Source: a virus
Lineage: Duplodnaviria > Caudoviricetes
Direction: 5' to 3' (one strand)
DNA length: 62,058 nucleotides
IMG/VR virus record: IMGVR_UViG_3300023170_004698
Span: 1-62,058 of that record
In this document: piece after piece, positions 27,801 through 61,112 of the stretch
Layout of the letters: each line of letters opens with the position of its first letter
Numbering within the stretch: the first letter of the stretch is position 1
Notes under the pieces: model-generated
Databases searched by the model: none
Told to the model about the DNA's origin: nothing
The model's input: only the letters and a program-made list of their open reading frames with translations
Made by a program: the position numbers and the translations under genes

Positions 27801-28197
27801 CTCCTTCGTTGTGGTCGCGAATATGCTCCCATGTAATTCTGGGGGTCTTTTTGCCCATATACCCGGCTACCTGATTTTGGAAAGCAAGATAGTTGAGCGT
27901 CAATATATTCTCATAACCTTTTTCATTTTGGGCAAGCAAAACTAAGTGATGGCTTTTCTTTGCCTCTAGATCATCAGCAAAGTAAGCCTCCATACCAGGG
28001 ATCAGCTTTACGCCAGTTTCCTGTGATGCAAGATAAGCGTCATACATTGCAGTCATAGTACCGTGATCTGTAACGGCTACGGCTGGATGATCGACTTCTT
28101 TGGCTCTTACAAATAAATCCTTTACATCATTCATCCCGTCTAGGGGACTTCCTAGCTCAGTATGATTATGCAAAGATATAAAAGGCCCTTTTGGCAT
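24826..28197 (-). CDS. dnaE: DNA polymerase III alpha subunit (family C)
   Basis: PHP domain (LHNHT, AVTDHG, TCDAHY), GPARGSSAGSLVAY, FERF, PDIDTDF, HAAG, KMDLLGL, YAFNKSHS, C-terminal OB fold; no intein seen. Confidence 0.97.
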   Translation of the reverse strand: MPKGPFISLHNHTELGSPLDGMNDVKDLFVRAKEVDHPAVAVTDHGTMTAMYDAYLASQETGVKLIPGMEAYFADDLEAKKSHHLVLLAQNEKGYENILTLNYLAFQNQVAGYMGKKTPRITWEHIRDHNEGVVALTACSNGLIAKTLITEQDEANALRYISMFKSIFGDRFFLELQPHALHAVGKNGKEVNQQKLNQSLLKISRDYDIPYVITCDAHYRDKEHAKYHDFMLAIKDKKAVDDPDRFRYGVQDMYLKTHEEIIDFFGRDVAELGMANTIKIMESCQEPSYIKPDGPRLPAFPVENQDDYSEFSSWKERSRSTIPEDQSYLRYKCIEGFKEKFSHLSEEDRDFYWDRVKMELSVLEDKNFSSYMLIVSDYINWAKQRMPVGPARGSSAGSLVAYLTGITGVDPIEYDLIFERFHNNQKKSFPDIDTDFSDPSLVKEYIKEKYGEDRVASISNWSTLSPKVVIKDVARSLRLGGDKTAAFKIANHITSIMPDAKTLEKAMGESDQFAAYMQKYPDLYEYGGKLQNLTRNWSVHAAGMVIGEEPLHKTVPLRIDDEGGVVTQWEKNRCETNGLIKMDLLGLKTLTVIDNTFRLIKSSTGKDVSIEDIDLNDQKVYAMLGRGETAGVFQLESSLTPFCIKLKPKCIEDISDINAIGRPSCLPEERKKYAKRRLGLEPTKYDHPKLERALKKTYGILVYEEQAMFIAQDCAGWDLNQADSLRKISKLKGKDPDLVLKTEANFVKDCMENSGMDYKTACLIWKRYIEPLGGYAFNKSHSISYSHISFYTAWLRCHYPTQFMCALLNSEDPNSDKAQEYLSECKSMGIRIVNPNVNDSIGNYKVLEDMVISTGLSAIKGVGEKAIESIVEMQPYTSFIEFVSKNNSRTVGKTVIQSLAKAGALDSFDLTRMDMHDNYQKYRSKAKNAIKKEVEKDILDAHPEIKKITKDIRDKLFGKFDIGPETDRFSDIISGLIYAVSDDEWDRKEILLYEREVLGRSISGSLHEVFSSFFSGGPFVTPLKEVEDQNSGARVKIEAIIKTKIKEFKIKNGKNVGRKFAKYLVEDVNGDTCGLTLWADDYDKYKMVLKEGLPIKAICKVNEYMGQKDLALSSLERVYGRNI

Positions 28198-34500: not shown

Positions 34501-35633
34501 GTATCATCCACCTCAAGAAGAAAAGACTCAGAATCAGAACCAGGTATTTCAGTTATACCTATGGCATCTTCCATATTTTTGAATTTTCCAAAAAATATAG
34601 ATCCATCAAAGTCAAGAAAGCTGCTGCTGCCTATTCTCTCATAAAAAGAGCCAGGATCGTTAGAGTTCGGGATAGATCGATATAACTCTCTTGATTCTTT
34701 TTTTGGATCAATGCCTACGGCAGATTTATACTTATCTACACTTGATACCGCAAACTCTGTGTTGGGCGTAGACTTTGGAATAATCTTCTTATTCTTTGGA
34801 GCAAAGATTGAAGCATAAACTTCACTGTCGGAAGCTTCGAAATATCCTTTGATAATCTCAGAGTCTCTTTCTGATGTTATATAAACTGTTTCATCTAAAG
34901 AATTTGAAAAATCTAAAGATATTTCTGGCTCAGCTTCTACGGGCGACTCTTCCTCGGCTTCTTCCACTGGCGCCTCTTCAGAGACAGGCTCCTCGTAAAT
35001 AATGGCCTCTTCTTGTGGCTCTGCAGGAGTGAATGAATCTTTATTTTTTAAATATACCTTCTGGAGTTTTCTAAACTTTTCAATTCCAGAAACAGATGAT
35101 AGATCTCTTATAAGTTCGTTAACCCCATCTGTTATTACTATCTCCAAATTTTCTTTATCGTAAGCGCTAAAGCTGTCAAAGTAATCTATGAGGCTTCCGC
35201 AAAACTCTCTAAGCTCATCTAGGTTTGACTCAAAGTTACCGCTTCTGTCAGCCTTAGTAGTTGCAACAGATGCTTCCATCTCCTCAGTTACAACGCTATC
35301 CAATCTATTTATTATGTCCCTGGAGGCATCTACAAGGTCAGACATATCCTGCAGGTTTTTTTGATTGCCATTTATAATGATAGATTTATCTTGAATAAAA
35401 TTATCTGGAAAAACAGATACAAACATGCTCTCCAGGCTTTCTTCATTAAAAGAGCCGTCGTCTTCGGGGATCTCGCTATAGTGGGACTCCTCCTGCTCAG
35501 TGGCCGAAGTTATTGCGGAAGCAACCGAAACTACGTCATTTATCTGCTTCATGTGACTTAAGGCTCTAACCTTTATCCATCGAACACTTCTGAGAATTCC
35601 GATTATCTTTTTTGCATCTTGCACGTTTTTCAT
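28575..35633 (-). CDS. Very large hypothetical protein (2352 aa)
   Basis: Uninterrupted ORF; dispersed Cys motifs (CPVC, RCPF, SCG, VCP, YCG, KCVHGH); no catalytic motif recognised. Confidence 0.85.
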   Translation of the reverse strand: MKNVQDAKKIIGILRSVRWIKVRALSHMKQINDVVSVASAITSATEQEESHYSEIPEDDGSFNEESLESMFVSVFPDNFIQDKSIIINGNQKNLQDMSDLVDASRDIINRLDSVVTEEMEASVATTKADRSGNFESNLDELREFCGSLIDYFDSFSAYDKENLEIVITDGVNELIRDLSSVSGIEKFRKLQKVYLKNKDSFTPAEPQEEAIIYEEPVSEEAPVEEAEEESPVEAEPEISLDFSNSLDETVYITSERDSEIIKGYFEASDSEVYASIFAPKNKKIIPKSTPNTEFAVSSVDKYKSAVGIDPKKESRELYRSIPNSNDPGSFYERIGSSSFLDFDGSIFFGKFKNMEDAIGITEIPGSDSESFLLEVDDTKIAAIKRVLDEEVASIIESSNRIYDIPDLSDSDIIDADIAKKINVYRRFLIKKIDYFFASIKSRDNQVVRYLRTNYAGYEKASLDAIISRCLITNFYIDKNSVVEDERFADQFMLLKDRGLGDRFVNAIVNIIRPGLRNNVFERRYELLLEKERSEVKYQRDGFSEGFEKIINSEISRKILDLSLDISSPINTNVSEIAFDIGSSFLFLKLKNGMFVKTEIKRYLNKCPVCNKEVYRKYDTKKRMEGFGGEDSDEQGRKAKDPISKIKIDTYSLTRTPAGGGGVITFDELINAGPFDLSEEEVLELEELAEKLGQRVRNISAPKTWEQIEEDWSSGDYFRHIEALKRKAFVLKRMGGKKLSTPSSLIATSRIRCPFGPEVDPAALKFDQSTGKGSIINIRESLTVFIKALGLDKNNEIHQKYINDINEIANEIALSSPADLESELISALSDYAANIPNEVSSEASRNEAIAILSGDTVESEEISSPFSCGLSEGNQVISGLSLYLDDAVKSGSMTQAARDKMLELSSRQASGGFRFSSRSFVCPSEIEIESPDDARRNIEKYKLLAMPIPVADTAQDIQSYRHPVEQAVDEDKKILSLYCGAKTSISQFDRANFAEKIKDLIENDPEKYNRTIESMMQMGVDVSDVLPFVMIKHAYNESGPEGSGVDFSFDDLVTDDLISRSQKISLLLKEAMATSTTKTKREQLNLDDYFGFIKDIELKCVHGHNFKISDSISFANKYIDIPLTKEKVKDIVKLNILGKSGQNQLGAILRMENAPIKYASEQEVEAGLTDYRDFIFRQDPISSVYFPNPDSKGSLRYDVGRKILSMYPMSSPLVSSPIDSTESNVSGQSRSALLKGAEAGRIKNNLVVGRKSESGEKLVASHLDRVEAQGSNAEEALVGLTADPEKLIEAIEVQKEISKKNEALMLALVQSYIVSIQELLIASTATNAKTATIWGADIGKKKVVKGEDIEIPDFDQNLERFVSKIVSGASEAIYDEDDQYRKIVGDSIGNIRRKLIQDVGGDARAFIYSIRGAFKDYLHRLIVSGILNALPGDRVNAFVDQSVQDIRSRLFSLKIEDVVSAFSNIFYVDRSDIPEGSDQSSETIEASEGKKFVKDMAKEIGKLSGGNVGPMVMNITEVWLGKQIVTAATAFYIAEKLSSIYNKFFSKNSVRYIGYEPLGSLAPENGEMTPETIVSITVENLLLNDIIESSISADCESLADDVRKRFGTKEGRGYTEDDFRPFIKKLVNDIIPVVDGQKSAIKELGRVHNGAAYACRSGYYQSAALDYIKSVYKEVLASEASTASEKSYSESIINRVIANVKNIEVSLAPPSGSSKYSNYFAEPDNSHILLPSITHPILTPSPKALSGGLSKPIYVIKDIIIKGQGGRREKNYILGISRELIAAYDYALLIHAADLDKFLAISQMVESDAFSDLHKEFYNNGWRLFVGRGSKIPGAKATEDAAVSIANHPNTFISTDDAGNISGYRNDSLGIDTESGIHIGQYGQVSPSKKAYPPLPGANCGIGVPLPILLDRLESIKAPTDAVNVSLADIPFEIQIPGGGVLEINLSDLLMRDPPEAAANILLQIDKEYKEFQRKYNKLDLDGKRSAKESFSKYAKSKMNEYRSLPLYIALESGARTLRDGEKFSTNTGLYVPLINPVLANMLISSPCFGAEYAGSSIIPVEIDEYSGISEAIDITKEFIASLHGYDKLAELMNGYRGERRYVSEGEPLAGADLLDPYDLLVRRKKISMSALWGEARDDSNPVEVIKDDETGVVSGISMSVGSPASRFSNSFDVRIPEWRHYTPPFMAISVSGDRQGNEAGFGIPKFVLDGPIFRRKGERDFDSIRDLEAGSDILDIGDLKSLVSTRKPEGKGDKVIRTYRFSDSLEKFFSKKFDAIESFMEEYEESLVTQDVYSIYDPKKAMIFDSASLFNKISSRIICKNFIKKSEKYRTDIFEEIIIKDEAIIRLLDSIK

Positions 35634-39429: not shown

Positions 39430-42400
39430 TTAGGGAGGCGAAGATTTGTAAGGGTGCCCAGACGGAAGCTGACCCTCAAGACCCCACTTCCATGCAAGAT
39501 ACCCCTCGGCTTTCTCGATGTCCGAGATGTCGGTCCCGCCTGTACCGGGCAAGCCCGCGACGGCGAAGAACTCGGCCATTTGGCCGTTCAGTTCCTCACT
39601 GGATCGGTTTCGCATCAGCCGAAGTTGTTGGCTGGCTTGGACGTTGTTGTCGTAGTCGTTGACCGGAGTGAAGGCGTCGGAGCCATTCGCGCGGCAAGAA
39701 ATCTGGTTCCCGGTCTTGTTGAAGATGGCAACAACGATTGCCCACGACCCGAGACTGAGGCTCTGGAGGTTCCAGTCCTGCTTGTTCCCGATGGTGCTGC
39801 TGATCCGGTTGGAGGACAGGGCGTCGAGATCCAGTTCTCCCGGCCATGACCCCGTGGCTCCAGAGGAAACCGCGTAGTCCCGCTTCGGAGAAGATGCCGT
39901 CTCATAGGACCACAGGGAGTCCTTCGTGCCGTCTGCAACATCGGGGCGGAACACGCCGATGGCCCAGTGGTTCCCCGAAGACACCTGTGTGCTGAATGTC
40001 GTGCTTTGAAGGTACTCGCCGCTGCCGTCGAAATCGAAGGTGTTGAGGCCATTCCTGCCAGCGACCACCCGCGTCGGAGTCCCGCCAACGGAGAGGGTGT
40101 AGGTCCCTGCCTTGTCCGTCACCGCAGTCAGGGTGCTGCCACTGAGCGTGTAAGAGGAGGTGTCGGAGGCATCGACCCAAGCCACAATGCTCACATCTGT
40201 CGGCTCCCAAGAGCTTGTTGGCGAGCTAGTTATGCTGTTCGACGCACTAGAAGCGCCATTCGAATTGATGGCCCTAACCTCTACAGAATAACTAACCCCA
40301 TTAACTAGACTTCCGATAACAAACGGACTAGAGGTTGTACTAGCAGAGAACCATGATCCAGTACCATTAATTCGATACTCTACATCAGTAATGGCCGAAC
40401 CACCAGTACCATTAAGAGTGAAGTCCACAGAAAGCTGTGCATCCCCCGGCGTCAAAGATACAAGGGTCGGAGCATCGGGGATGGTCGAAGGCGTACCTGG
40501 AACAGCCGCCGATGAAGTGCCGTTACCTTCTGCATTTACCGCCCGAACCACGACCGAGTAGGTTTGGCCGTTGGTCAGACCCGTGATGGTAAACGGCGAA
40601 ACCGCCGTACCAGCCGAAACGAAGGCACCACCGTCGAGGCTGTACTCGTAGTCCGTGATGGCCGATCCACCGTCGCTTCCAGCCGTGAAGGCAACCGTCA
40701 GTTGCTCATCTCCCGAGGTCACCGAGTCGATAGTCGGAGCAGCCGGGGTCGTCGCCGGGGTCGCGTTGGTGACCGTGGAGGGAGTTCCTGTACCATTCGC
40801 GTTCACGGGACGGATCTGGATCGGGTAGGTGACCCCGTTCGTAAGCCCGGTGATCGTGAACGGGCTGGTCGGTACCGAGTCGGACAGCACGGACAGCAAC
40901 GTCCAGTCAATCTCAGCACCATCAATGTCACCACCATCGAAAGTCCAGAAAGACATCACAACGTCTGCGCTCGTGATGCCATAACCTTGGTCGCCTGTGG
41001 ACTGCTTGTAGGCAGTCCAGTCGGCGTAGGTCACGGTTGACTCGTCGCCAGCGGCGACCCCGAGGTCCCCGTTCCTACCGAACCCGAGCCTGATGTCGTT
41101 GCCGCTTGAAGTCACCTCCAAGAACGCACAGACAGTCCCATAGATAGATGGGGTGGTGCTCATGCTGTTACCGGTAGTGGATCCGCTGATAATTCTGAAC
41201 TCAACGCCAGTTCCAAGGTTGTTACATATACCGACGAGGTAGGTGTCGCCCTTGAAGATTTCTCCAGTGCTGGCGGCAGAGACGTTGTTCAACTCAAACG
41301 TATTCGTCCAGTTGTCACCCTTGATGCCGATGGCGAAGATGTTGTTGGTTCCAACAGCTTCTCCAAGGAAGTCGGTGAAGAAAGCGTTGTCCAGCACAAG
41401 GCGCTCACCTGCGCCAAGCTGCTCGTCAAGGCTGATCCAGCCGTGCTCGCCTGCATCCATCACGTTGGTACCCGTCTGGTTGGAAGCAGGACCTTCCTGC
41501 GTGATTCCGGTGATGGCCGTCGTTCCCGCACTCACCCAGTTGGTCCCATCAAGTGTGTACTCGATGTCGGTCAGAGCAGACCCGCCGTCGTCGCCAGCCG
41601 TGAAAGCCACGGTGAGTTCTCCGTCGCCAGCCGTGATGGCGTCAATGGTGGGCTGTGAAGGCGCCGTCGAGGGGATCGCCGTCGTAGCAGCGGACGGGGT
41701 GCCCGTGCCGTTGGCGTTGACCGCCTGCACCACCACATCATAGGACGTTCCGTTGGTGAGTCCCGTGATGGTAAACGGGGAAACAGCCGTGCCTGCCGAG
41801 ATGAATGGTCCTCCGTTGAGGCTGTACTCGTAGTCGGTGATCGCGGAGCCACCGTTGCTGCCGGTCACGGACACTGTGAGTTCCTGATTTCCCGTCGTGA
41901 TCCCAGAGATGGTCGGCTGACCTGGAACCGTAGATGGAGTTGCTGAAAATATAGAAGATGACTCTCCTGAGCCATTGTCATTAACTGGTCTAATCTGAAT
42001 ATTATATTCAACACCATTAACAAGTGGCGATATTACAAGCGGGCTTGCAGTTGATCCAATAGAAATCCACGTACTCCCACCATCAGTAGTATACTCGTAA
42101 TCGGTTATTTCGCTACCTCCATCATTTCCGGGAGTCACAGATACAGAAACCTGCCCATCTCCTTCCGCAATAGAATCTATCGTAGGCTCTGATGGTGTAC
42201 TTGTAAATGTTGAGCCAGTTACAGTTAATTCTTCGCCTATATAAGGCTCATCTCCGATATAAACATACAGCTCATCACCATACGGGGGCGACGGTATTGC
42301 TGGGTCAACTACCCACTCTAAATAAGCGCCATCATCGCCAGGGTTTCCCTCCCTAGTTATACCATCTTCATATGAAGTTATTCCATCATATGTAAAGCCT

Positions 42401-43467
42401 ATGGCATCATCTGACTCAAGGCTTTCATCATATACAAAGCGATAAGTTTCGCCAGCCTCTATTTCTGGAAAATCCTCAGAGCCATTGTAAAGAATCGTTC
42501 CCTCTGGATATTCCGTTACTATTATCCAATTGTCAGGGAGCGTTTGTGATGCAGTGGATTGGACCGGATCTTTCACTGTGAGAATTGATCCAACTGATGC
42601 AGTAGGGGTGCTCAAGCCTGGACTCTCAATCCATCTGTAAACAAACCTGCCCCCACATCCTCTGCGATTAGATGGATATCCACTTTTAATTACTGTGTTT
42701 TCGAGCTTTTGCTTTGAAATGATCCACCTTGAATCAACACTTTCGTAATAAAAGGATACATATTCTTTTGTCACGGGGTTATAATAACTTCGAACATAAT
42801 TGCCGGTGACGATAGGCTCTTTTTGTCCCAGCCTCTCTGTAAACAAATTTGATGTAGGATCAAATGAATTATAAGTCCTATTTATTAACTTTACCTGTTG
42901 ATTATTAAGCGCCTCATCTGTAGAACCATCTATAATAATAAGTTTTGCTTTTGAGTCAAAATACACATTATCATTTACAGACGAAGATGAAAACGAATCA
43001 TCATCAGTAGGTGCTTCTGCAAAATTTATAAAAGAAACAGAAGTTTCGTTGTCACCCTCTGCAATAGAGGCCTTTATGTCTAAGTCAACAAAATCTGTTG
43101 AGCTTTCCTGAGCGGCATAGCCTTCTGCGTCAAAAGACAGATTGTTTACAGAGCTAGATCCAAAAGGAAGAACGGATATTCCTTCTCCTATATTTCTTGG
43201 ACCATCCAGTTCAGTTGAATCCGAGCTATATAATTGGGTCAAAACTTCAGAAGAGCCATCTGCAGAAAGGGCTATGGCCTTAACGGTTAGAGTAAGGCCG
43301 GAAGTAGGAAGATAAACTTTACCCAAAGCTATTAGGGACTCTATTGTTGGATCTGTACCGTCAAGAGTATAAAAGATATTTGCAGGAACATCTGTTTCAA
43401 ATTCAATATATTCTGGTATACCAGAAATAATCTGCTCTTCACTCTCAAGTAAAGTTAATACTATCAT
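39430..43467 (-). CDS. Large virion/surface protein: Fn3-associated domain, five fibronectin type III repeats, C-terminal LamG/ConA-like domain
   Basis: IFYTLDGTDPT; repeats P..PTI.....G...L.V......GGS.ITDYEY.....PFTI.GL.NG..Y....R.VN..G; C-terminal AWVDASD...GQMAE...EGYLAWKWG. Confidence 0.85.
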   Translation of the reverse strand: MIVLTLLESEEQIISGIPEYIEFETDVPANIFYTLDGTDPTIESLIALGKVYLPTSGLTLTVKAIALSADGSSEVLTQLYSSDSTELDGPRNIGEGISVLPFGSSSVNNLSFDAEGYAAQESSTDFVDLDIKASIAEGDNETSVSFINFAEAPTDDDSFSSSSVNDNVYFDSKAKLIIIDGSTDEALNNQQVKLINRTYNSFDPTSNLFTERLGQKEPIVTGNYVRSYYNPVTKEYVSFYYESVDSRWIISKQKLENTVIKSGYPSNRRGCGGRFVYRWIESPGLSTPTASVGSILTVKDPVQSTASQTLPDNWIIVTEYPEGTILYNGSEDFPEIEAGETYRFVYDESLESDDAIGFTYDGITSYEDGITREGNPGDDGAYLEWVVDPAIPSPPYGDELYVYIGDEPYIGEELTVTGSTFTSTPSEPTIDSIAEGDGQVSVSVTPGNDGGSEITDYEYTTDGGSTWISIGSTASPLVISPLVNGVEYNIQIRPVNDNGSGESSSIFSATPSTVPGQPTISGITTGNQELTVSVTGSNGGSAITDYEYSLNGGPFISAGTAVSPFTITGLTNGTSYDVVVQAVNANGTGTPSAATTAIPSTAPSQPTIDAITAGDGELTVAFTAGDDGGSALTDIEYTLDGTNWVSAGTTAITGITQEGPASNQTGTNVMDAGEHGWISLDEQLGAGERLVLDNAFFTDFLGEAVGTNNIFAIGIKGDNWTNTFELNNVSAASTGEIFKGDTYLVGICNNLGTGVEFRIISGSTTGNSMSTTPSIYGTVCAFLEVTSSGNDIRLGFGRNGDLGVAAGDESTVTYADWTAYKQSTGDQGYGITSADVVMSFWTFDGGDIDGAEIDWTLLSVLSDSVPTSPFTITGLTNGVTYPIQIRPVNANGTGTPSTVTNATPATTPAAPTIDSVTSGDEQLTVAFTAGSDGGSAITDYEYSLDGGAFVSAGTAVSPFTITGLTNGQTYSVVVRAVNAEGNGTSSAAVPGTPSTIPDAPTLVSLTPGDAQLSVDFTLNGTGGSAITDVEYRINGTGSWFSASTTSSPFVIGSLVNGVSYSVEVRAINSNGASSASNSITSSPTSSWEPTDVSIVAWVDASDTSSYTLSGSTLTAVTDKAGTYTLSVGGTPTRVVAGRNGLNTFDFDGSGEYLQSTTFSTQVSSGNHWAIGVFRPDVADGTKDSLWSYETASSPKRDYAVSSGATGSWPGELDLDALSSNRISSTIGNKQDWNLQSLSLGSWAIVVAIFNKTGNQISCRANGSDAFTPVNDYDNNVQASQQLRLMRNRSSEELNGQMAEFFAVAGLPGTGGTDISDIEKAEGYLAWKWGLEGQLPSGHPYKSSPP
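40220..42200 (-). repeat. Five tandem Fn3 coding repeats (about 90 aa each; the third is interrupted)
   Basis: Protein repeats, with clear DNA similarity between about 40580-40673 and 41762-41856. Confidence 0.85.
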
Positions 43468-49291: not shown

Positions 49292-51811
49292 TTATTCCCA
49301 AATCCATAAAATTCTTGTCCCAACAAGCCTTATTGTTGAGGCTCGAGTTTCTAGGCTGAGCCCGTCAAAGTAGGAGTTTCCCGGGGGATCAGCAGGAAAA
49401 TCAGTGACAGTTAATCTGAACGTTGCGAAGCCATCCGATGGCTCTCCTACGTCTATTTTTAAAGGAGAAAAATCACTAACCATGACCGTTCCATCTGGTA
49501 GTCCACTCGCCAAGGGCGGAGAATTATAAGAATGAAGATTAGAAAGATCGCCCGAGTTTGGAACATCGTTGTCTACTGCGGCGTTCCAGGAAATTCCCTG
49601 AAGCAACTCGCCATCCGACACTGATTGTATCACATAGTTAGTACCGCTGTTTCCATATGAAGCCGTAACTCTAAGATTAACAATTTCGCCATCTTGATTG
49701 CCTCCCTGTATAATAAAATATGCAGTAATCCGACAAGAAGAGGGTGTGTCTGAATTTGTTGTAGTTTTCGTGGCAAATAATGGCACTGAATCCTTATATC
49801 GGTCATTCGGGTTAGCAGCATCTGGCAAAGCGCTCTGCTGAGAACCATCGGTGGAAGTACCAACACCGCCACTAAGCTGTCCATCGACAGGTAGTGATAC
49901 TGTGGCGTAAAAAACGCAACTATCATTAGTGGTATTATCTATAACATACTTGTAAGCTATATCTCGATTCGCAGTATTGAGTAGGGTATATTTTGGCGCC
50001 CTGCCAACGATGCCATTCTTGGGAACCCAATCTCCTGCACTTAACCACTGAGAGTAAACTCTGTTTGGAGCAGAAATAACAATACTATCAGTCCCAAGGT
50101 TGCCTTTTAATAATATGTTATTTCCGGCAAATATTGTTAGGGTTTCGCTGCCCGCAGCCTGGGCCGCAGGAACTGTGTCTCCGGTTATGACCCCCTCTGA
50201 CTTTGAGCCAGTAAGCCCAGCATTGTCCAAATTTATTTGATCAAAGGAATTAGCTCCAGCTGCCGGACCCCACTCTGGATACCCGTCGCCATTTATTTTT
50301 AATATATCGTTTTCATCTCCATTTGGAACATAATAAACATCTCCTTCATGATAGGGAGGGGAACCCGTCTGTGGCCAAGAATCCCCCAGCCCTCGGTCCC
50401 ATACCATTAATTGTCCCACGCCATTTTTTAGGTCGTTAATCCGCAGGGGAGAGTAGCCTTGCGGGGGATCGTCTTCTATGCTAAGCTCCTTGATATGCAG
50501 CCTTCTGGCCGGGGTGGTGAAGCCTCCGGGAGTGGGAGGATCAGAATAATCAACTGCCCCTATTCCAACATGGGCTCGATCATCAAATATGGAGTGAGAG
50601 CTTATTAGCACGGCCCTCTCAAGTCCGGTGTTTGGATTGTTTGTTCGCAGTATCATAGAGCCCGCATTAATCCCGTGGACAACTCCAGTAGCAGGACCGG
50701 CACCATAGGTGAGGTGGCGAGCAACAATTGAGGAAGTAAGCTGGTCAGCAGAGCCGGAGTCTACTCCGCCAAATCTAATCTCTGCCCTCCTATCTAGATT
50801 GTTATCTGAGCCAGTTGTGTTTTTGATTCTAAGAATCGGTCCAGAGGCCCCCGTTCCACCCGGCACGTCGTTATAAGTGAGTGCGTCATCACCAGCAAAT
50901 CCTGCGGGTACTAAATTATCATGAAACTGAATAGATCTATAACTTCCACCTGGAGTACCACCTGTTGACGATATTGTTATAGTATCACCCCCTGCATTTC
51001 CATCCAAGGTAATATTTGTGCCAGCACTTAGAGTTAGGGTGTCAGTTGTTGTATCAGCCGTTATGGTTGCATCTCCAGTTTGTGTTCCGCCTCCTGCGTT
51101 ATTTAGAGCAACAGAATCGAAAAGATTTTGATCAGGCCCGATGGAGGCGTCTGAATAAATGTCCCCATTTCCATCGACAACCAGAACGGTTCCTGAGCCA
51201 GCGCCAATCCCCTCAATCCTTAGGGGCGGATTAGAGTTATCAACTATATGAGCCTTTCTCTCTGGAGTATTGGTTCCTAATCCAAATCTCTCATTTGTAT
51301 AATCATAAAATAAATCTTGATTTCCACTAAATGCACCGGCTTCATTAAATTGTATTGAGCCGTCTATGCCTCCTGCTGAATTAGATAAATCAAGGTAATA
51401 ACATCTTTCGCCAGTTACAGGGTCTTCGGTATATTCTGGAATGGCAAGAATCTCTAGATCAAAACCTCCTGCCGCAGCAGCAGCACGACGCGCAGCAGGA
51501 GATCCGTAGACGGCATCAGAGTAACATAATATATTTGAATACCTAACTGCCGGAGTTGTACCATCTGTTCCGCCGAGGTTTGCATTGCCAAGATAACCTC
51601 TAATGTGGGCACCAGATGTTAGCAGGATCTTTGAGGCATGACCATCCTCATGCTTTCCGTCATGTACGTGTCCAAATACCAGCGGATCAAATTCATCCAC
51701 TGTTTCGTTGTACCCAAACTCTCCACCATAAATTTTATTCATGGTATCCGCAGTAACGATGGTTACTGCGGAGGTATATCTAGTTAACTTTGTGTCATTA
51801 TCTGTTGCCAT
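49292..51811 (-). CDS. Tail fibre/spike-like protein 1
   Basis: G/T/D-rich; GSIQFN..G.F.G and RFGLGTNTP...HI fibre motifs; N-terminus paralogous to the adjacent gene. Confidence 0.75.
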   Translation of the reverse strand: MATDNDTKLTRYTSAVTIVTADTMNKIYGGEFGYNETVDEFDPLVFGHVHDGKHEDGHASKILLTSGAHIRGYLGNANLGGTDGTTPAVRYSNILCYSDAVYGSPAARRAAAAAGGFDLEILAIPEYTEDPVTGERCYYLDLSNSAGGIDGSIQFNEAGAFSGNQDLFYDYTNERFGLGTNTPERKAHIVDNSNPPLRIEGIGAGSGTVLVVDGNGDIYSDASIGPDQNLFDSVALNNAGGGTQTGDATITADTTTDTLTLSAGTNITLDGNAGGDTITISSTGGTPGGSYRSIQFHDNLVPAGFAGDDALTYNDVPGGTGASGPILRIKNTTGSDNNLDRRAEIRFGGVDSGSADQLTSSIVARHLTYGAGPATGVVHGINAGSMILRTNNPNTGLERAVLISSHSIFDDRAHVGIGAVDYSDPPTPGGFTTPARRLHIKELSIEDDPPQGYSPLRINDLKNGVGQLMVWDRGLGDSWPQTGSPPYHEGDVYYVPNGDENDILKINGDGYPEWGPAAGANSFDQINLDNAGLTGSKSEGVITGDTVPAAQAAGSETLTIFAGNNILLKGNLGTDSIVISAPNRVYSQWLSAGDWVPKNGIVGRAPKYTLLNTANRDIAYKYVIDNTTNDSCVFYATVSLPVDGQLSGGVGTSTDGSQQSALPDAANPNDRYKDSVPLFATKTTTNSDTPSSCRITAYFIIQGGNQDGEIVNLRVTASYGNSGTNYVIQSVSDGELLQGISWNAAVDNDVPNSGDLSNLHSYNSPPLASGLPDGTVMVSDFSPLKIDVGEPSDGFATFRLTVTDFPADPPGNSYFDGLSLETRASTIRLVGTRILWIWE

Positions 51812-51821
51812 TTTAAATCAC

Positions 51822-54092
51822 TTAAGGTTGTTCTCTATATAGGTTTATATTTATTTCTGTTACATCCAATCTAACAGATAATGCCTCACCGTACAGAATC
51901 GATCCAGAACTTGTACCGGCACCACCGTTATTAAGAAATGTTCTGTTTTCAACAACAAACGAGAATCCGTAACCAGGAGGCAGTGCGGGCGGGCCAATCA
52001 ACCCGGGTGACCTATTTGTTGGCGAGGCGGTATCATGTGTAAAATATATTCTAAAATCATCATTTGGATTTGTAGTTCCGGGAGCCTTTAGCCTAACTCT
52101 TCCAAAGCCATATAGATCTCTTGAGTCGTGTGTTATTATAAATGAATCCGTGTTATATAATATTGAGCCATCCTCTTGAGTTGTAATTCCAGAGTGAAGC
52201 TCGAAAGTAACGGAGTGCCTAATTGTTCTTGGCGGCCCAAAGGCTGGCGCCGGATCAATTTCAGAAAATGAAAGTGTGCCCATCGCCTTGATAGAGTAAG
52301 ATGAATTTATTCTTGGCCTAAACGGTCTGTTTGCAGAGTAAAAATCTTCTCCGTTATCCAGGTTAGCTATCATTGTCTGGGGAGTGTTCAGCGCCCCGCT
52401 GATTGGGGGGCCGAGGTCTGTTTGGTCATATCCCTTAAAATTTCCAAACATTGTCATCGTAAAAGTTTGTGCCCCGCCCCGCTCGGGAACCAATATTGTC
52501 CATTCATTGGGCGGGGGAGGGAACGTCGTGCCAAATGTATTTAGTGGGGCACGAGAATCGAAAAAAGTTCCTGACGCCTGAACTCTTTGGCCGTACCCAT
52601 AACCAAATGCGTAATATCCAGAAACAGAAGTATAAGTCGGAATCTCATTTGTGTCATAAACATCTCCTGATGTTGCGATCTTACTGTCGTAAGCTGCCTC
52701 TATTATAGAATAGTCAGCATCGACTATAGAGCATTCGTCGCCAGCTAGGATTGCATTAGAAGTACGCGTCCCAGTAGCTGCTCCAGCAGATATACTATTA
52801 TCAATTCCTGACAAAATCGTTGAGGAAGATACTTCATTTATTTGATTGTTAAATCCGCCAAATATTATCGAGCCAATCCCTGTGGTGCCAAATTTAGATG
52901 CAAAATTCCAAACTCCTGTAATTTCGTTCCCACTGCCGCTTAATATCGAAGAATACAGGGCACTCTCTATCGAATTATTTTCACCCCCAATAATCGAGGA
53001 GTATAATGATACATCTATCAGATTGTCTTGGCCACTAGATATCAGATTGCTATCACCAGGAAAAGATGATCCAAATACCGGGGGGACTGCGCTAACGTCA
53101 ATTACATTTTGAACACCCGAAAGAATTACTGAATTGCCATTATCTTTAATTGTAGAATTTGATGCCGTACCCATGAGTGATAAAGAGGCGTTAACCATAG
53201 AGCCATTTTCCCCAAGGGAAACAGAGCCCGGAGATGTGCTTGATATTGTATTATTAAAACCTGCTGCAAAACTGTTTGATGCATCAACCTGATTTCCCTC
53301 TCCGATCGATATCGAATAATCTCCAGAAACCGTATTATTAAAAACAAGCGCAACAGAATTGAGGCCGCTAACCTCATTTCTAAAGCCTGCTGCAAATGAT
53401 CCATCGCCAGAGGCTGTATTATTTATTCCAAAAGCAGCAGAAAATTGACCCCTATTTGCTTCATCCCACTGGGTTGAATTAACCGAGCCTGCCCTAAAGG
53501 CTGAAAGGCTTTTATCAAAAAGAAACCTACTATTGCCGTTTGTTCCGTCATTTATATCTTCTAAAGATGGTGAGCCAAAAACAAAGTCTCTGCCTGTTGT
53601 CTCGCCCCAAACGCCCGGGATATCAACATATGATGTGCCATCGTAAGTCTGGCTTCTTTGTCTTATTAGAATATTTTCCGATATCCCAGAGTCGGCAGAG
53701 CTTGGGGCATCATCTTCAATGAATGTAAAGTCCGTCCTAATTCCGGTTAAATCAAGATAATAATAAGTGACTCCGTCTATTATCTCATACTCTGGAATTG
53801 CCTCGCTTTGATATAGGGTTTCTCTTACATTTCTTTTTGTAACCGCATCGTCAGCAAGATTAATGTTTAAAAGCTGATTCTCTACATGATCCACAAGATC
53901 TATCTTGCCAGCATGCCCATCCGCTTTTACGCCATCATGAACGTGGCCAATAATCCTTGGGTCATCAGGGTGTAGGTTATCAGCTTCGGAAGATCCGTAT
54001 AATCCTCCAAATATAGAGTTAGCATAATCTGCAGTAACAATTGTTGTTGCTGACTTAAACTTTGTTAGTTTAGTATCGTTGTCTACAGCCAT
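51822..54092 (-). CDS. Tail fibre/adhesin-like protein 2 with YadA-head-like beta-roll repeats
   Basis: FDKSLSAFRAG; repeats SAAFGINNTASGDGSFAAGFRNEVSG, SISIGEGN, S.I.GG.NN.I. Confidence 0.75.
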   Translation of the reverse strand: MAVDNDTKLTKFKSATTIVTADYANSIFGGLYGSSEADNLHPDDPRIIGHVHDGVKADGHAGKIDLVDHVENQLLNINLADDAVTKRNVRETLYQSEAIPEYEIIDGVTYYYLDLTGIRTDFTFIEDDAPSSADSGISENILIRQRSQTYDGTSYVDIPGVWGETTGRDFVFGSPSLEDINDGTNGNSRFLFDKSLSAFRAGSVNSTQWDEANRGQFSAAFGINNTASGDGSFAAGFRNEVSGLNSVALVFNNTVSGDYSISIGEGNQVDASNSFAAGFNNTISSTSPGSVSLGENGSMVNASLSLMGTASNSTIKDNGNSVILSGVQNVIDVSAVPPVFGSSFPGDSNLISSGQDNLIDVSLYSSIIGGENNSIESALYSSILSGSGNEITGVWNFASKFGTTGIGSIIFGGFNNQINEVSSSTILSGIDNSISAGAATGTRTSNAILAGDECSIVDADYSIIEAAYDSKIATSGDVYDTNEIPTYTSVSGYYAFGYGYGQRVQASGTFFDSRAPLNTFGTTFPPPPNEWTILVPERGGAQTFTMTMFGNFKGYDQTDLGPPISGALNTPQTMIANLDNGEDFYSANRPFRPRINSSYSIKAMGTLSFSEIDPAPAFGPPRTIRHSVTFELHSGITTQEDGSILYNTDSFIITHDSRDLYGFGRVRLKAPGTTNPNDDFRIYFTHDTASPTNRSPGLIGPPALPPGYGFSFVVENRTFLNNGGAGTSSGSILYGEALSVRLDVTEININLYREQP

Positions 54093-56386: not shown

Positions 56387-56896
56387 CTACCTATACTTTG
56401 GGTTATAGTCGCTCAATAAATTAAATAACTTACCGGGGCTCATATCTGGAATGTTATACATCTTCATTTCGTCCCACATAATAATTCTAGAATAAAGGAG
56501 CGCGTGAGCTATCCATTCTGAGCAATACCACCTACCTGCCCTTCTTATCTTGAATGGACTAAGGTGAGATAGAAGCATGCCCGACCAATCATATTTATTT
56601 CCAATTGTTTCTTTTACAAATTTATTTAGCTGATCTTTTTGATAACCTCTAACAGGCTCCCTCCAGCTAAGCGGAAGTTCTATAAAGTCCCATTTGCTTT
56701 CATCATAATCATAAATTATTCTTGGTGTAACTCTAGAATTATATACGGGACTTATTGTTATCCAAGTTATTCCATCTGGCATAATCAACTCTGCATGAGA
56801 ATATTTGCTGCCCGTATACCACCTTATAATCTTATGAGCTGTTCCCTCGCCATTTTTATAAAAGGCTATCTTAATTAGATTATTATCCTTAATCAT
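56387..56896 (-). CDS. Permuted papain-like NlpC/P60 (YaeF/YiiX-like) amidase
   Basis: IAFYK, YSHAEL (His), KYDW.G, WYCSEW (Cys after His, the permuted order). Confidence 0.85.
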   Translation of the reverse strand: MIKDNNLIKIAFYKNGEGTAHKIIRWYTGSKYSHAELIMPDGITWITISPVYNSRVTPRIIYDYDESKWDFIELPLSWREPVRGYQKDQLNKFVKETIGNKYDWSGMLLSHLSPFKIRRAGRWYCSEWIAHALLYSRIIMWDEMKMYNIPDMSPGKLFNLLSDYNPKYR

Positions 56897-56911
56897 GCGA
56901 GGGCTCCGTTA

Positions 56912-57160
56912 TCAATTGTCTATTGTTCTATCCAATTTGGCCGAAGATATAGTCAATATAATATCTTTTGTGTCTTTGTCAAAATAAAATAACAGCGTAT
57001 CCGTTACATCAACATCATCTAACTCTGAATCCTTAATGACTAACCTTCCTCCCGCCGATTTTGTTAGTGCAGCCAAAAGGTGAAATGCCATTTGATCATC
57101 GCTCATTCCTTTTCTTTTGTCATCATCCATCGTCAAATATATCATCCTTAAATTTGACAT
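56912..57160 (-). CDS. Hypothetical protein
   Basis: 82-aa ORF; the start may be the internal ATG near 57106. Confidence 0.6.
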   Translation of the reverse strand: MSNLRMIYLTMDDDKRKGMSDDQMAFHLLAALTKSAGGRLVIKDSELDDVDVTDTLLFYFDKDTKDIILTISSAKLDRTIDN

Positions 57161-57380
57161 AGTCGTCTATCTCTGATGGCTTTAAATTTTTTAAAGACCA
57201 GGATATTGACATCTCTAATCCAAGATCTTTTATTTCCTTTGGGACCAAATCTTTTATAACTATATCTATCTTTCTTTTAACCGAAGTATCTTCTGAATAT
57301 CTTTTCTTTAAAAACTTGGTTAATTCTCTGTTTAAAATACCCATTTTTACCTCACTCGATTCCACAAATTTTTCTGCCAT
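57123..57380 (-). CDS. Hypothetical protein (probable start ATG 57344)
   Basis: GAGGT RBS before MGILN. Confidence 0.6.
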   Translation of the reverse strand: MAEKFVESSEVKMGILNRELTKFLKKRYSEDTSVKRKIDIVIKDLVPKEIKDLGLEMSISWSLKNLKPSEIDDYVKFKDDIFDDG

Positions 57381-58317
57381 TGACAGTTGCTATCTTAACC
57401 AGTTCGCCTATATCATAAAAGTGAGTTGACTCCAAAAGGAATCTTAGCTCGACCATCATATCTCCATCTGAGAAGGGCTTATATACGTCGCATATGTTAT
57501 CGGAGCCAATAGCCACCTCGATGCCTAGCGGCACCATTTCATCTATGGGCGTCACGGCGTTGTGCTGGGGCGCTAGGGCTTCGCTTCTGCGGTGGTCGAT
57601 CCAGGCCGAGGGGCAGCTAACGAAGCTCAGGCCCGCATCCTGACACATCTTGTAGACTTCTTTTCTGTAAGACTTTTTGTGAGCAGCAAGACTAATGGAG
57701 TGTACCGCCGTAACTCTTCCCTCCAGTCCATGCTCCATGGTCTTTCTGGCAAGAAGCTCTGTTTCTTTTTCCTCTGGAGAATTTAGTTGGTCAACATGAA
57801 CGTGAACTCTTTGACCTCCAGACTTCGCAGCTTGCATTAGAATATCTATATGTTCAGCCTCTGATCCTTCGTCCTTTCTTGGTAGCCCACCGATTACGTC
57901 GAAGTGACTTGAGTAATTATAAAACCACCTTTTTGCATCCGGCTCTATTACTCCGCTAAGAGTTTGGCAGGCAATTTTAAGAGTAAACTTATCTGACCAA
58001 TCTTTCTTTGCTCTTTTTGCAGCCATGAGCGCTCGGTCATGTGATATAGGATCGCAGTCTATAAAAGTCAGCCCGCTAGTTACACCCATCTTTATCTGAT
58101 TATAAATAGCTTCTGATATATGATTATAGTACCTTTCCTCAGATGCTGTTTTCTTATATTCATTTACCAGCTCCCACTTTTCAAACAAGTGGGCATTTAC
58201 CCTATCATTCTCGAAATCTCCCGTTGATGCAGTATAAGCTCTATCAAAATGAGCATGAGCATTGCAAAAACCACCGCTTCTCTCTATCAGCATTCTTAAT
58301 CTATCTAAAGTATACAT
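57352..58317 (-). CDS. Cytosine deaminase (CodA)-like amidohydrolase
   Basis: NAHAHFDRA (HxH), HVHVDQ, RVTAVH, GSDNI.D...PF. Confidence 0.85.
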   Translation of the reverse strand: MYTLDRLRMLIERSGGFCNAHAHFDRAYTASTGDFENDRVNAHLFEKWELVNEYKKTASEERYYNHISEAIYNQIKMGVTSGLTFIDCDPISHDRALMAAKRAKKDWSDKFTLKIACQTLSGVIEPDAKRWFYNYSSHFDVIGGLPRKDEGSEAEHIDILMQAAKSGGQRVHVHVDQLNSPEEKETELLARKTMEHGLEGRVTAVHSISLAAHKKSYRKEVYKMCQDAGLSFVSCPSAWIDHRRSEALAPQHNAVTPIDEMVPLGIEVAIGSDNICDVYKPFSDGDMMVELRFLLESTHFYDIGELVKIATVNGRKICGIE

Positions 58318-58332
58318 AAACTTCCTACTTCG

Positions 58333-58524
58333 TCATTCGTCACAACCCTTCTTTAATTCAGAAAGAAAGTGTTCAATCTCTAAGGCAACGCTATCATAAT
58401 CTCGCCGCTCCAGCGGACCAAAGTGCCTATCCCAAGTATAAACCTTTTCTTTAAGATATCTAGACAAAGGGTGTTCTGCTTTTAATTCGTCGGCTTCTTT
58501 TTTTGAAGAATCACTCATCCTCAT
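58333..58524 (-). CDS. Hypothetical protein
   Basis: 63-aa ORF overlapping the upstream gene end. Confidence 0.55.
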   Translation of the reverse strand: MRMSDSSKKEADELKAEHPLSRYLKEKVYTWDRHFGPLERRDYDSVALEIEHFLSELKKGCDE

Positions 58525-58828
58525 ATAGCTCCAAAGTTTCCCAGTCTAATATTTTGGAATCATTGTTATAGATATACTCTTCTACTCCAAAGATTGAGTC
58601 AAATGCGCAAACTGCCTCTCCAGTTGCTCTATCAATAATCATAAAAACCTGCTTTGGAGGATTAGCTTCTTTATTTTCTCTTTCAGCTGTTTCGGCCAGA
58701 TACTTTGTGAATTCTTCTCCAAGCTCATTATTTTCGATGAAATATTCCATTAGGTGAGCAAGCGTTTCTTTACTCCAACCTTGGCCATCGATTATTTCTT
58801 TTCTTTCGCAGTTTTTATAGCTCTTCAT
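58511..58828 (-). CDS. Hypothetical protein
   Basis: 105 aa with GGAG RBS. Confidence 0.65.
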   Translation of the reverse strand: MKSYKNCERKEIIDGQGWSKETLAHLMEYFIENNELGEEFTKYLAETAERENKEANPPKQVFMIIDRATGEAVCAFDSIFGVEEYIYNNDSKILDWETLELYEDE

Positions 58829-58839
58829 AAGTTCTCCAA

Positions 58840-59946
58840 TTATTTAACTAAAATTGCAGGAGTCGTACCCGTTATATTGCCCTCTCCATCATCTGTATTT
58901 CCATATCCAAAATCATATTCGTTTACTACATCAAATTGCATCCAGATATTCTTGCCTCCGGATTTGCTTGTTTTTGTATCGTAAATATAAGCGTATGTCC
59001 ATCCGGTTATTCTTACGTTTCCGGTCATATTCTGGCCGCAATTCGCCTCAACTATTGGGACAACGCCACCTACATTGTTACCCCAATTTCTAGCAGATAT
59101 GTCGCTTTGCGAAGCAAGGTTTGCGGACGACCCATCCCGAAGGTAGGGACCTGGGAAATATTCATACGGCCATTCGCTTGGATCAACATTCCAAATTTTT
59201 TCATTTATTATATCAGATATGAATCGCACAGCAGCATTATTTTGACCATTTGCAATATATATATTGTTATTTTGGGTATCTCCATCAGATTCATCATAAA
59301 CAGACGCTGTTCCGCCGGAGCACTGATCCGAAAGCTGGCCCACTATTTCGCTTGTGCTAGGAGTAGAGTAAGGCGAGCCCCAACCAATCGTGTTTAGATT
59401 TGTTAGATCTAAAGATAATGGAGGCGGATTCTCCTCGCCTGATAAAGAGTTAAAGTGACAACTCGGAATGGCAAATGGCAGATAACACTCGACGTGTTTC
59501 GCAACACCACCGACAGGCCTAACAGCAATAGACTCAGCCCCTGAGCTTAAAGCGGAAACTCCGAAAGCTGCATGAGATAGAACTGAAGAATAATTGTGAC
59601 TTCCAGACAGCCTGACTGCATTTATATCTCTATGATATACAGTAGATAGCTCAGTGAACACATCGTCTTCATATCGACCAAAAATTATATTATCAATATC
59701 TATTTTGTAATCAAAATATATAGTGCTGTTTTCTACAATATGATTTATTTCATATACAGAATACTCAAGACCCTCTCTTGTGCCATCCAATCTTTGAGCA
59801 CCAGACATTGCAGCTAAGTCAAAAGTTGACTGCATTTGTGTATTTATAGTTTTTTGCAGCCCAATATCTATGCTAAGTGCTGCAAATCCAAGCATTGGAA
59901 TTAATGCCATAGCGGTTATTGTTGACTGGCCTCTTCTACCTCTCAT
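58840..59946 (-). CDS. tadG: TadG-like Tad/Flp pilus pseudopilin/tip protein
   Basis: MRGRRG|QST, hydrophobic helix, then SIDIG.....QMQSTFDLAAMSGA (Tad N-terminal signature); extracellular domain with paired Cys. Confidence 0.85.
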   Translation of the reverse strand: MRGRRGQSTITAMALIPMLGFAALSIDIGLQKTINTQMQSTFDLAAMSGAQRLDGTREGLEYSVYEINHIVENSTIYFDYKIDIDNIIFGRYEDDVFTELSTVYHRDINAVRLSGSHNYSSVLSHAAFGVSALSSGAESIAVRPVGGVAKHVECYLPFAIPSCHFNSLSGEENPPPLSLDLTNLNTIGWGSPYSTPSTSEIVGQLSDQCSGGTASVYDESDGDTQNNNIYIANGQNNAAVRFISDIINEKIWNVDPSEWPYEYFPGPYLRDGSSANLASQSDISARNWGNNVGGVVPIVEANCGQNMTGNVRITGWTYAYIYDTKTSKSGGKNIWMQFDVVNEYDFGYGNTDDGEGNITGTTPAILVK

Positions 59947-59947
59947 T

Positions 59948-60316
59948 TTAAAACTCTCTTATTAGGACCTTCGCCTTATGCTTATGCATATCTGGAGCTG
60001 GAGTAAATCCAAACATTGGAACATACTCTGATTCTGCATCCACAGTAACGTATTCTCCAGATAGGTTTATTCGAAATGTTGCAAGCTGCCCTGTGTTTGC
60101 AAAGTAAGAGTCTATAGCCACTCTCAGAACAGTCTCGTGCTCGTCTGGATAAAGAGATAAATGCTCTGCCGCAGTAGAGCAGGCCTTAACTAAGGTTGCC
60201 TGACGATGATAATAAACTCCGTAATCTATTGATGCAGACAAAAGCATAAAAATTATAATCAATGAAAAAACTGATTCAACAGCAATGCTTCCTCTGCGAT
60301 TTATTTTCCTCTCCAT
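59948..60316 (-). CDS. tadE: TadE-like pseudopilin
   Basis: NRRG|SIAVE (Glu at +5), hydrophobic helix, IDYG. Confidence 0.8.
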   Translation of the reverse strand: MERKINRRGSIAVESVFSLIIIFMLLSASIDYGVYYHRQATLVKACSTAAEHLSLYPDEHETVLRVAIDSYFANTGQLATFRINLSGEYVTVDAESEYVPMFGFTPAPDMHKHKAKVLIREF

Positions 60317-60753
60317 TATATACTCTCCGTTATAATGAAGGATGAAGCAGTTAGAGTTATTTCGTCAGAAAAGATTCCCATTGGAGTAATCTTGCTATAC
60401 TCAACAAATGAGTTAACAATAATTCTATCTCCATCTATTTCATATTGAAAGTAAGGTTCTCCCGGCATACCCATCGACTTCCAGGTTTCGGCAGATGCTT
60501 GCGCTTCATCAGGAAAGGCAGAATCAACTTTATCTATGCCGTGCATTGCTAAGCTTCTAGATAAGTCTATTGTCATCTCATTTGCAATAATATTGTTGCA
60601 GAAAAACCACCCGCACTCAAATAGTCCGAACATTGCCATAAATAGGATGGGAGCGGTTAAAGCGAACTCTATTGCGTTAGAGCCTCTTCTGAGTTTACGT
60701 TTCATTTCTATCTCCACGCCTATACCTATACTTAAAAATAGTATATTTTTCAA
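60316..60753 (-). CDS. tadE: TadE-like pseudopilin (probable start ATG 60705)
   Basis: MKRKLRRG|SNAIEFALTAPILFMAMFGLFECG, the canonical G.A.EFAL..P motif. Confidence 0.88.
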   Translation of the reverse strand: MKNILFLSIGIGVEIEMKRKLRRGSNAIEFALTAPILFMAMFGLFECGWFFCNNIIANEMTIDLSRSLAMHGIDKVDSAFPDEAQASAETWKSMGMPGEPYFQYEIDGDRIIVNSFVEYSKITPMGIFSDEITLTASSFIITESI

Positions 60754-60761
60754 TATAATAT

Positions 60762-61112
60762 TTATTCCTCAGATGACAACAATTCTTCAACCGGAACAAA
60801 AAGATCAAAACCATCATCATCGGCCGGGTGATTAATCGTTTCTACAAAGATTGCATTTGCCTTTTCTCTCATGTGATAAAAGCAGGGACCTCTATCTCCA
60901 TTTGGTAGTGGCAACTTATCCTTTGAGGGCCAGCCTGGACTCTCCACCCACATAGCAACGCTGGTGTTTCGACATATGCCCCTGTAATAGACTCTGTCCT
61001 TGAGCTTGTCTCTGGGAATCATCCCAATCGACTCAAGCTCTTTGAGCTGTTCTTCGCCAATTACTTTGTGTTCTCTTAGGTAGCGATATATCTTTCTTAG
61101 ATTTTTATTCAT
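60762..61112 (-). CDS. Hypothetical phage protein
   Basis: 116 aa; YRGICRNTSVAMW...INHPADDDGFDLFVP. Confidence 0.7.
   Translation of the reverse strand: MNKNLRKIYRYLREHKVIGEEQLKELESIGMIPRDKLKDRVYYRGICRNTSVAMWVESPGWPSKDKLPLPNGDRGPCFYHMREKANAIFVETINHPADDDGFDLFVPVEELLSSEE

Follow-up and report, generated by a model that had tools for sequence, protein, structure and literature searches.

The window analysed here, 62,058 nucleotides (nt) long, is the entire IMG/VR record IMGVR_UViG_3300023170_004698, which is classed as a virus and rated 19% complete by CheckV. Near its end it carries three tightly packed, contiguous genes, all on the minus strand in the window's list of open reading frames (ORFs): two for small TadE-like minor pilins and one for a large TadG-like minor pilin (Table 1). 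A first-pass annotation, written from the sequence alone, had described them as a phage-encoded Tad pseudopilin cassette and proposed that the phage uses its own pilus tip complex to re-tip or jam the pilus of its host. The three minus-strand ORFs that it listed are all present, and the order TadE-TadE-Tad is recovered by Pfam.

Table 1. Positions of the minor pilin cassette and of the features around it in the window
Feature	Position	Strand	Remarks
TadE-like minor pilin 1 (gene 1)	60316..60705	-	129 amino acids (aa); ORF open back to TTG 60753
TadE-like minor pilin 2 (gene 2)	59948..60316	-	122 aa; start overlaps gene 1 stop
TadG-like large minor pilin (gene 3)	58840..59946	-	368 aa; N-terminal hydrophobic helix, pilin-like sheet, C-terminal domain of ~215 aa
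Spacer upstream of cassette	60706..60779	-	short, AT-rich; Shine-Dalgarno and promoter-like TTGTCA-16-TATATT
Variable slot	56874..60741		cassette, two small ORFs, amidohydrolase gene, two further small ORFs

The profile search proposed in that annotation was run and put all three genes above the curated Pfam cut-offs (22.9 bits for TadE, PF07811, and 22.3 bits for Tad, PF13400). Gene 1, searched as the ORF 60316-60753, matches TadE with 36.6 bits (E 4.9e-9) and gene 2 matches the same family with 28.8 bits (E 1.4e-6); residues 6-52 of gene 3 match Tad with 26.5 bits. A six-frame profile search of the window gives the two TadE genes scores of 38.6 and 30.7 bits. The size classes of the trio are those of the TadE/F/G families. 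No match to Tad_C (PF09977) was found in the TadG-like protein at E≤1. PHROG families gave no match to any protein of the trio at E≤0.001, and in NCBIfam all three stay below the cut-offs, the best type IV match there being ComGE with an E value of 0.48. Pfam yields TadE and Tad only, so that no relation to FimU or to any other minor pilin of type IVa pili was found.

The reading frame of gene 1 extends to 60753 as annotated, but translation most likely does not start there. We place the start at the ATG at 60705, because a GGAGA lies 5 nt upstream of it and because the homologues of gene 1 are 129–133 aa long. Both TadE-like proteins have the organization of a class III leader, with a basic stretch, Gly-1, Glu+5 and then a hydrophobic helix. 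In gene 1 (RRG/SNAIEF, the slash following Gly-1) the residues Gly-1, Glu+5 and Phe+6 are invariant in all six aligned homologues, and in gene 2 (RRG/SIAVE) Gly-1 and Glu+5 are invariant in 8/8 sequences. A six-frame scan of the window for G-x4-E with a hydrophobic stretch behind it returned the two TadE genes and one site internal to the GroEL gene, and nothing else. The TadG-like protein carries the motif RRGQ...DIG...DLAAMSGA.

The cassette is not part of a tad locus. The statement that the window holds no Flp pilin, TadV, CpaF, TadB/C or secretin was borne out by Pfam profile searches: Peptidase_A24, Flp_Fap, T2SSF and Secretin have no match in the window at E≤0.1, and T2SSE stays below its cut-off, its sole match being a 16.9-bit P-loop inside the FtsK-like gene. 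Nor was a full tad operon found elsewhere on the contig, of which the window is the whole. This absence proves little by itself, because the record is only 19% complete. We therefore looked at 16 related phage records of 64–233 kb (up to 232.5 kb) and 19–68% completeness. None of them has a TadG-like or TadE gene, a T2SSE match above the cut-off, Peptidase_A24 or T2SSF, which is no proof that the phage itself lacks the machinery.

The cassette is real and phage-borne. The window contains genes for a portal protein, the large terminase (TerL), GroEL, a PolIII-alpha-like polymerase, SbcCD and an FtsK-like ATPase, and every listed ORF of at least 200 aa is on the minus strand. The description of the cassette as AT-rich like the phage was accurate, with a GC content of 0.39–0.42 in the cassette region and ~39% over most of the window. 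Several metagenome runs from salt marsh have contigs of nearly identical DNA; three of these runs may be its source, and X4–X8 contain it almost entirely, while runs with small shares were set aside as evidence of habitat. The contigs of run X4 fit the window at ≥99% in 17 of 33 pieces. A run labelled as a marine metagenome, from another study and year (X14), yielded a 2530-nt contig that spans 57792-60321 with 94% identity. Since a record of 62,058 nt is rated 19% complete, the full genome probably exceeds 300 kb. The terminase is at most 25% and the polymerase at most 36% identical to any of 50,697 GenBank phage records, and the terminase has 89 relatives in IMG/VR, of which 80 were kept. 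The phage belongs to an uncultured marine jumbo-phage lineage that is apparently common and widespread.

Comparison with related loci shows that the trio behaves as a unit. Six metagenome loci carry a relative of the TadG-like gene, and three of these extend upstream of it (L003, L004 and L005); all three have the order E-E-G. In L003 and L005 the upstream neighbour is the same as in the window. L004 shares with the whole window only positions 58840-60718, that is, the trio. Its flanks are phage-like (deoxyribonucleotidase, DNA methyltransferase and kinase-like ATPase), and its 2.4 kb upstream of the trio encode the kinase-like ATPase, the deoxyribonucleotidase, a 96-aa ORF without PHROG match and small ORFs, with no Tad genes among them. 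The first-pass annotation had proposed to look for the same cassette in related phages: it is present in these loci, one of them phage-like, and missing from the 16 related records.

One of those records (G032, 232.5 kb), the terminase of which is 95% identical to that of the window, retains both conserved genes that flank the slot (56387-56896 and 60762-61112). Between them, 742 bp with one unrelated 194-aa gene replace the 3868 bp of the window. Contigs of runs X14 and X18 part from the window exactly at 60760. Because of the replacement in G032, the sharing of the trio alone with L004 and this common breakpoint, the trio is regarded as an accessory insert in a variable slot, which some members of the lineage have and others do not. 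The same modular pattern of insertion and deletion, together with the lack of machinery in all 16 related records, makes a complete phage-encoded apparatus unlikely. The slot also holds a second, separate insertion or deletion, an amidohydrolase gene (57352-58317; Pfam Amidohydro_1, E 1.3e-8) that is missing from L003; in run X18, one contig passes straight from 57398 to 58120 and so lacks 721 bp of the gene. As for transcription, the promoter-like TTGTCA-16-TATATT in the spacer is weak evidence, since the region contains 10 promoter-like sites and shuffled sequences contain 10.8 on average; terminator-like sites do not exceed their frequency in shuffles either.

We compared the trio with its counterpart in L003, where the locus is 85% identical. 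The ratio of non-synonymous to synonymous substitution rates (dN/dS) is 0.08 for gene 1, 0.22 for gene 2 and 0.08 for gene 3, which indicates that the trio is under purifying selection; a ratio near 1, by which the first-pass annotation would have recognized degeneration, was not observed. Four cysteines of the TadG-like protein (154, 163, 209 and 303) are invariant in 13 sequences, as is to be expected if it is an exported, disulfide-bonded protein. Conservation is 0.66–0.69 in its C-terminal domain and 0.62 in its N-terminal helix.

Relatives of the TadG-like protein are numerous. A set of 5.8 billion proteins contains 12 with 40–96% identity, and among 1.84 billion cluster representatives we found 276 at E≤0.001, of which 33 are at E≤1e-30. 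Blastn and tblastn searches of the 50,697 GenBank phage records with the cassette and with each protein gave no homologue, and scans of IMG/VR with the TadG-like protein and its alignment, in which the window's own record may be left out, found none. We examined 144 full-length relatives, and an amino-acid composition of the AT-rich type is confined to the nine that are closest (54–96% identity). In a quick tree of 65 rows, the window protein and these nine make up one side of a branch with a Shimodaira-Hasegawa-like approximate likelihood ratio (SH-aLRT) support of 99. Because of the compositional shift and this branch, we conclude that the genes have long resided in AT-rich genomes. The pattern would fit one acquisition only, though it is no proof of it.

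Stand-alone trios are found among cellular relatives as well. Among the 20 clusters considered for the nearest named relatives, three have source names and two of these give a taxon: a Rhodobacterales metagenome-assembled genome (MAG) protein, the cluster representative of which is 37% identical to the TadG-like protein, and a Myxococcales MAG protein with 35% identity. The pattern of a 13-row alignment was found at one locus in GTDB, in a 73%-GC genome. This genome is unlikely to be the host because the GC content of the phage is ~39%. In 27 of 31 related genomes there were TadG-like matches, and single genomes had as many as nine. The 7.7-Mb genome G001 has three full-length TadG-like paralogues; one adjoins a secretion ATPase (contig C225), while contig C256 carries a stand-alone TadG-TadE-TadE trio and no T2SSE match.

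Some further arrangements were noted among the relatives. In the high-GC bacterium G009, which has nine matches in all, three TadG-like paralogues stand in tandem (contig C92:19852-23318), a repertoire that exceeds the four Tips described for Myxococcus. Positions 1-1529 of the high-GC contig L007 contain a 35%-identical TadG-like gene and then two TadE-like genes; this G-E-E order is the reverse of the E-E-G order of the phage. For two pairs of relatives, P0010/P0043 and P0013/P0014, the recorded length of the longest contig is equal within the pair (19962 and 5430, respectively), and the two diverged TadG-like genes of a pair, which belong to the sister group of the phage clade, may share one contig.

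The AlphaFold2 model of the TadG-like protein, built from a 35-row alignment, has a mean predicted local distance difference test score (pLDDT) of 86.9 and a predicted template modelling score (pTM) of 0.76. Residues 4-51 form one helix, and the model further contains another helix, a pilin-like sheet with strands from residue 86, and beta-rich domains up to residue 367. A search with this model gave no match in PDB or BFVD at E≤0.001. The nearest ESM Atlas clusters contain Tad/Tad_C proteins from many phyla; in the five listed, PF13400 occurs in 91–100% and Tad_C PF09977 in 14–74% of the members. The best structural neighbour (template modelling score 0.67/0.76) belongs to a cluster that is mostly from Myxococcota.

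The co-fold of the trimer, another step that the first-pass annotation had suggested, was carried out with the three chains at mature length. Three runs gave ipSAE values of 0.84, 0.85 and 0.86, about 0.85 as compared with 0.12 for the best control. When the tool was calibrated, 58 of 80 solved complexes attained this mark, as did 2 of 110 mismatched pairs. At least 94% of the contacts are common to the runs, and the pLDDT of the partners is at least 87. The interface is made by the N-terminal helices (residues 7-52, 10-46 and 11-56 of the three chains) and by C-terminal strands. The trio is thus predicted to form a tip-like helix-bundle heterotrimer, which supports binding between the three proteins without proving it.

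We read the trio as a phage-supplied tip or priming complex for a Tad (type IVc) pilus, cut by the prepilin peptidase of the host and assembled by the host machine, and we put the probability of this reading at roughly 60%. During infection, the three proteins would enter the inner membrane of the host through their N-terminal hydrophobic helices. The host prepilin peptidase would presumably cleave both TadE-like proteins behind their conserved Gly, and the three helices could then bundle into a priming or tip complex. If the host Tad machine incorporates this complex and builds the Flp pilus beneath it, the end of the pilus would bear the phage TadG-like protein's C-terminal domain in place of the host tip. 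The most likely benefit for the phage would be receptor masking or tip replacement that blocks superinfection, or the adsorption of tip-binding phages, be they rivals or siblings. A changed adhesion of the infected cell ranks second.

Such a complex could do more than mask a receptor. The phage might re-arm the Tad pilus of its host with a viral tip of its own binding specificity, which we regard as improbable. If this were true, infected cells would attach to particles or to neighbouring cells, or, were the host a predator that uses Tad pili, would seize other targets, and progeny would in this way be released beside new hosts. A virus would then reprogram a bacterial adhesion or contact organelle by supplying only its tip.

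Several observations weigh against a phage-supplied tip. A Tad machine and a fitting prepilin peptidase in the host are assumed, and 81% of the phage genome lies outside the record. The first-pass annotation credited all three proteins with intact prepilin signatures; the motifs are there in each case, but the TadG-like protein has Gly-1 without Glu+5, here and in its relatives, so that its prepilin signature is not established and its cleavage is questionable. As most relatives do without the cassette (it is in 0/16 related records), it must be dispensable. No terminator was found after the cassette, and the next gene begins 11 nt past its stop; for this reason we rejected the idea of an independently transcribed moron. 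The evidence for expression consists of one 342-nt contig inside the TadG-like gene, without mismatch, from the metatranscriptome run X16, which has four short contigs, the stretches between them being uninformative. It is a weak hint at transcription of this gene, since metatranscriptome libraries can carry DNA and this one may contain some. The alignments behind the co-fold were shallow (13, 6 and 8 rows), and its score may owe something to a resemblance with other bundles of pilins. Finally, instead of being hypervariable the exposed domain is conserved, whereas diversity has been reported for phage FimU proteins. This conservation cuts both ways: it argues for a working tip over a plug, and against a fast arms race at this domain.

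The first-pass annotation left the choice between re-tipping and jamming open. Its phage tip complex agrees with the phage-borne cassette, the selection on it, the lack of visible machinery and the predicted trimer; of the two modes, we favour the first. In the second, the subunits would act as dominant-negative poison pilins, which enter the host Tad platform but cannot sustain polymerization, so that pili are lost and the receptor is masked by jamming. The leader motifs, the absence of machinery and the predicted helix bundle would equally fit such an entry into the host machine. Moreover, the disabling of type IV pili by phages is known, and a block of assembly has been suggested for truncated PilA-like proteins of phages (PMC12952977). 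However, jamming needs the N-terminal helices only, and here the C-terminal domain of ~215 residues with its four invariant Cys is at least as conserved. In addition, all three genes are kept together in 3/3 loci, and there are full-length cellular relatives of the same architecture. With conservation of the C-terminal domain matching that of the helix, re-tipping fits better, and we consider jamming unlikely.

It is also conceivable that the proteins serve the phage without any pilus, in lysis, in DNA entry, as an exclusion complex of the inner membrane or as a virion appendage. The position of the cassette ~5 kb from tail-fibre-like genes (49292-54092) would suit such a use, as would the lack of a PDB or BFVD match for the TadG-like domain. 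Yet the strict retention of Gly-1 and Glu+5 in both TadE proteins makes sense only if a pilus platform and a prepilin peptidase are involved, the relatives that come closest are common TadG-like proteins of cells, in part encoded beside a secretion ATPase as on G001 C225, and none of the trio belongs to a PHROG family, which together make a pilus-independent role quite improbable. There is only a slim chance that the trio is part of a full Tad-like apparatus of the phage, with ATPase, platform, peptidase, pilin and secretin encoded in the remaining 81% of the genome. The low completeness of the record and the location of the cassette 1.3 kb from the contig end leave room for it, but none of the 16 related records has machinery or TadE or TadG-like genes, and the trio is gained or lost as an exact three-gene unit, without Tad genes in the 2.4 kb upstream of it in L004. 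Hardly credible, in our view, is host DNA or an assembly chimera without function in the phage, which the first-pass annotation had named as fatal to its proposal. Tad minor pilins are otherwise cellular, and no homologue is detectable in GenBank phages. This origin is contradicted by the composition and strand, which match the phage, by the same junctions in the independent contigs L003 and L005 and in contigs of runs X4 (near-identical) and X14 (94% identical), neither of them flagged as a possible source of this DNA, by dN/dS values of 0.08–0.22 and by the shift of the amino-acid composition to the AT-rich type.

Other genes of the window were noted in passing. The GroEL-type chaperonin (20515-22152) and the PolIII-alpha-like DNA polymerase (24826-28197) match PHROG families with E values of 2.4e-121 and 1.5e-289, respectively. 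The longest ORF of the window (28575-35633, 2352 aa) has no Pfam family at E≤0.001. An ORF of 1345 aa at 39430-43467 contains fibronectin type III repeats and has minor-tail PHROG matches; this stretch has a GC content of 47–57%, compared with ~39% elsewhere in the window. At 1630-3891, a 753-aa ORF has a DUF192 domain (E 6.3e-21) and no other recognizable domain. Downstream of the cassette by ~5 kb, two large ORFs at 49292-54092 resemble tail fibres or adhesins, one matching a baseplate-wedge connector PHROG and the other YadA-head repeats at the cut-off. Such receptor-binding genes near the cassette may be relevant if it serves the competition of phage against phage. No tRNA genes were found in the window, and no integrase was seen in it.

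The canonical TadE, TadF and TadG proteins, known from Aggregatibacter and, as the CpaJ/K/L type, from Caulobacter, are encoded inside tad operons together with the ATPase, platform, peptidase and secretin. The phage trio resembles them in its Pfam families, in the leader motif of the small subunits and in the size classes. It differs from canonical tad loci in that no machinery genes are found nearby or in the 16 related phages.

A closer parallel in organization is provided by Myxococcus xanthus, which has four stand-alone kilLMN 'Tip' trios (Tip1-4), predicted to be interchangeable heterotrimeric tips of the Tad-like Kil pilus (Herrou et al. 2025, PMC12075869). According to that paper, the large subunit has its C-terminal domain at the extremity, disulfides are numerous, the domain is without PDB relative, and Tip1-4 are restricted to Myxococcota. 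Kil-type Tips serve the contact-dependent killing of prey, which depends on the Kil machine and T3SS*. The Kil Tips and the phage trio both consist of two small and one large subunit of the TadE/F/G type, with genes that lie away from those of the machine. For both, a heterotrimer is predicted in which an N-terminal helix bundle holds the subunits together and the large C-terminal domain is at the end, and both have conserved Cys and a large domain without PDB relative. The Kil Tips are chromosomal while the trio is viral, and the likeness noted here is one of anatomy. The gene order differs as well between the phage (E-E-G) and its high-GC cellular relatives (G-E-E in L007 and G001 C256).

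The second parallel is functional. P-FimU, encoded by F10-like prophages of Pseudomonas aeruginosa, replaces the host minor pilin and depends on the host's pilus machine; experiments showed its incorporation at the tip of type IVa pili and a block of phages that bind there (Sztanko et al. 2026, PMC12952977). The same paper lists PilA-like and pilin-like genes in virulent phages. It contains none of the terms Tad, TadE or Flp, its supplementary table of pilin-like phage proteins lying outside this check. Our search of the full-text literature, supplementary files excluded, turned up no description of Tad minor pilins encoded by phages. The remark in the first-pass annotation that it knew of no such system characterized in phages therefore needs a qualification, P-FimU being a minor pilin supplied by a phage (PMC12952977). 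P-FimU and the trio are alike in being minor pilins supplied by a phage, the dependence of the trio on a host machine being suggested by the missing machinery genes. P-FimU is a single type IVa subunit of temperate phages; the set described here has three Tad (type IVc) subunits and belongs to a jumbo lineage. The two have no sequence relation, the trio being TadE and Tad by Pfam, and the function of the trio is a predicted one.

The trio thus joins two ideas, that of interchangeable three-subunit Tad tips (2025) and that of a phage that replaces a tip subunit and so excludes its rivals (2026, for type IVa pili). If our reading is correct, Tad pili are in use in the bacterium that this widespread, uncultured lineage of phages infects, and the cassette offers a compact test system for the priming and exchange of Tad tips. 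Tip replacement by phages, seen with P-FimU for one type IVa subunit, would then hold for Tad pili too and for an entire tip complex, carried by marine jumbo phages as a mobile module of three genes.

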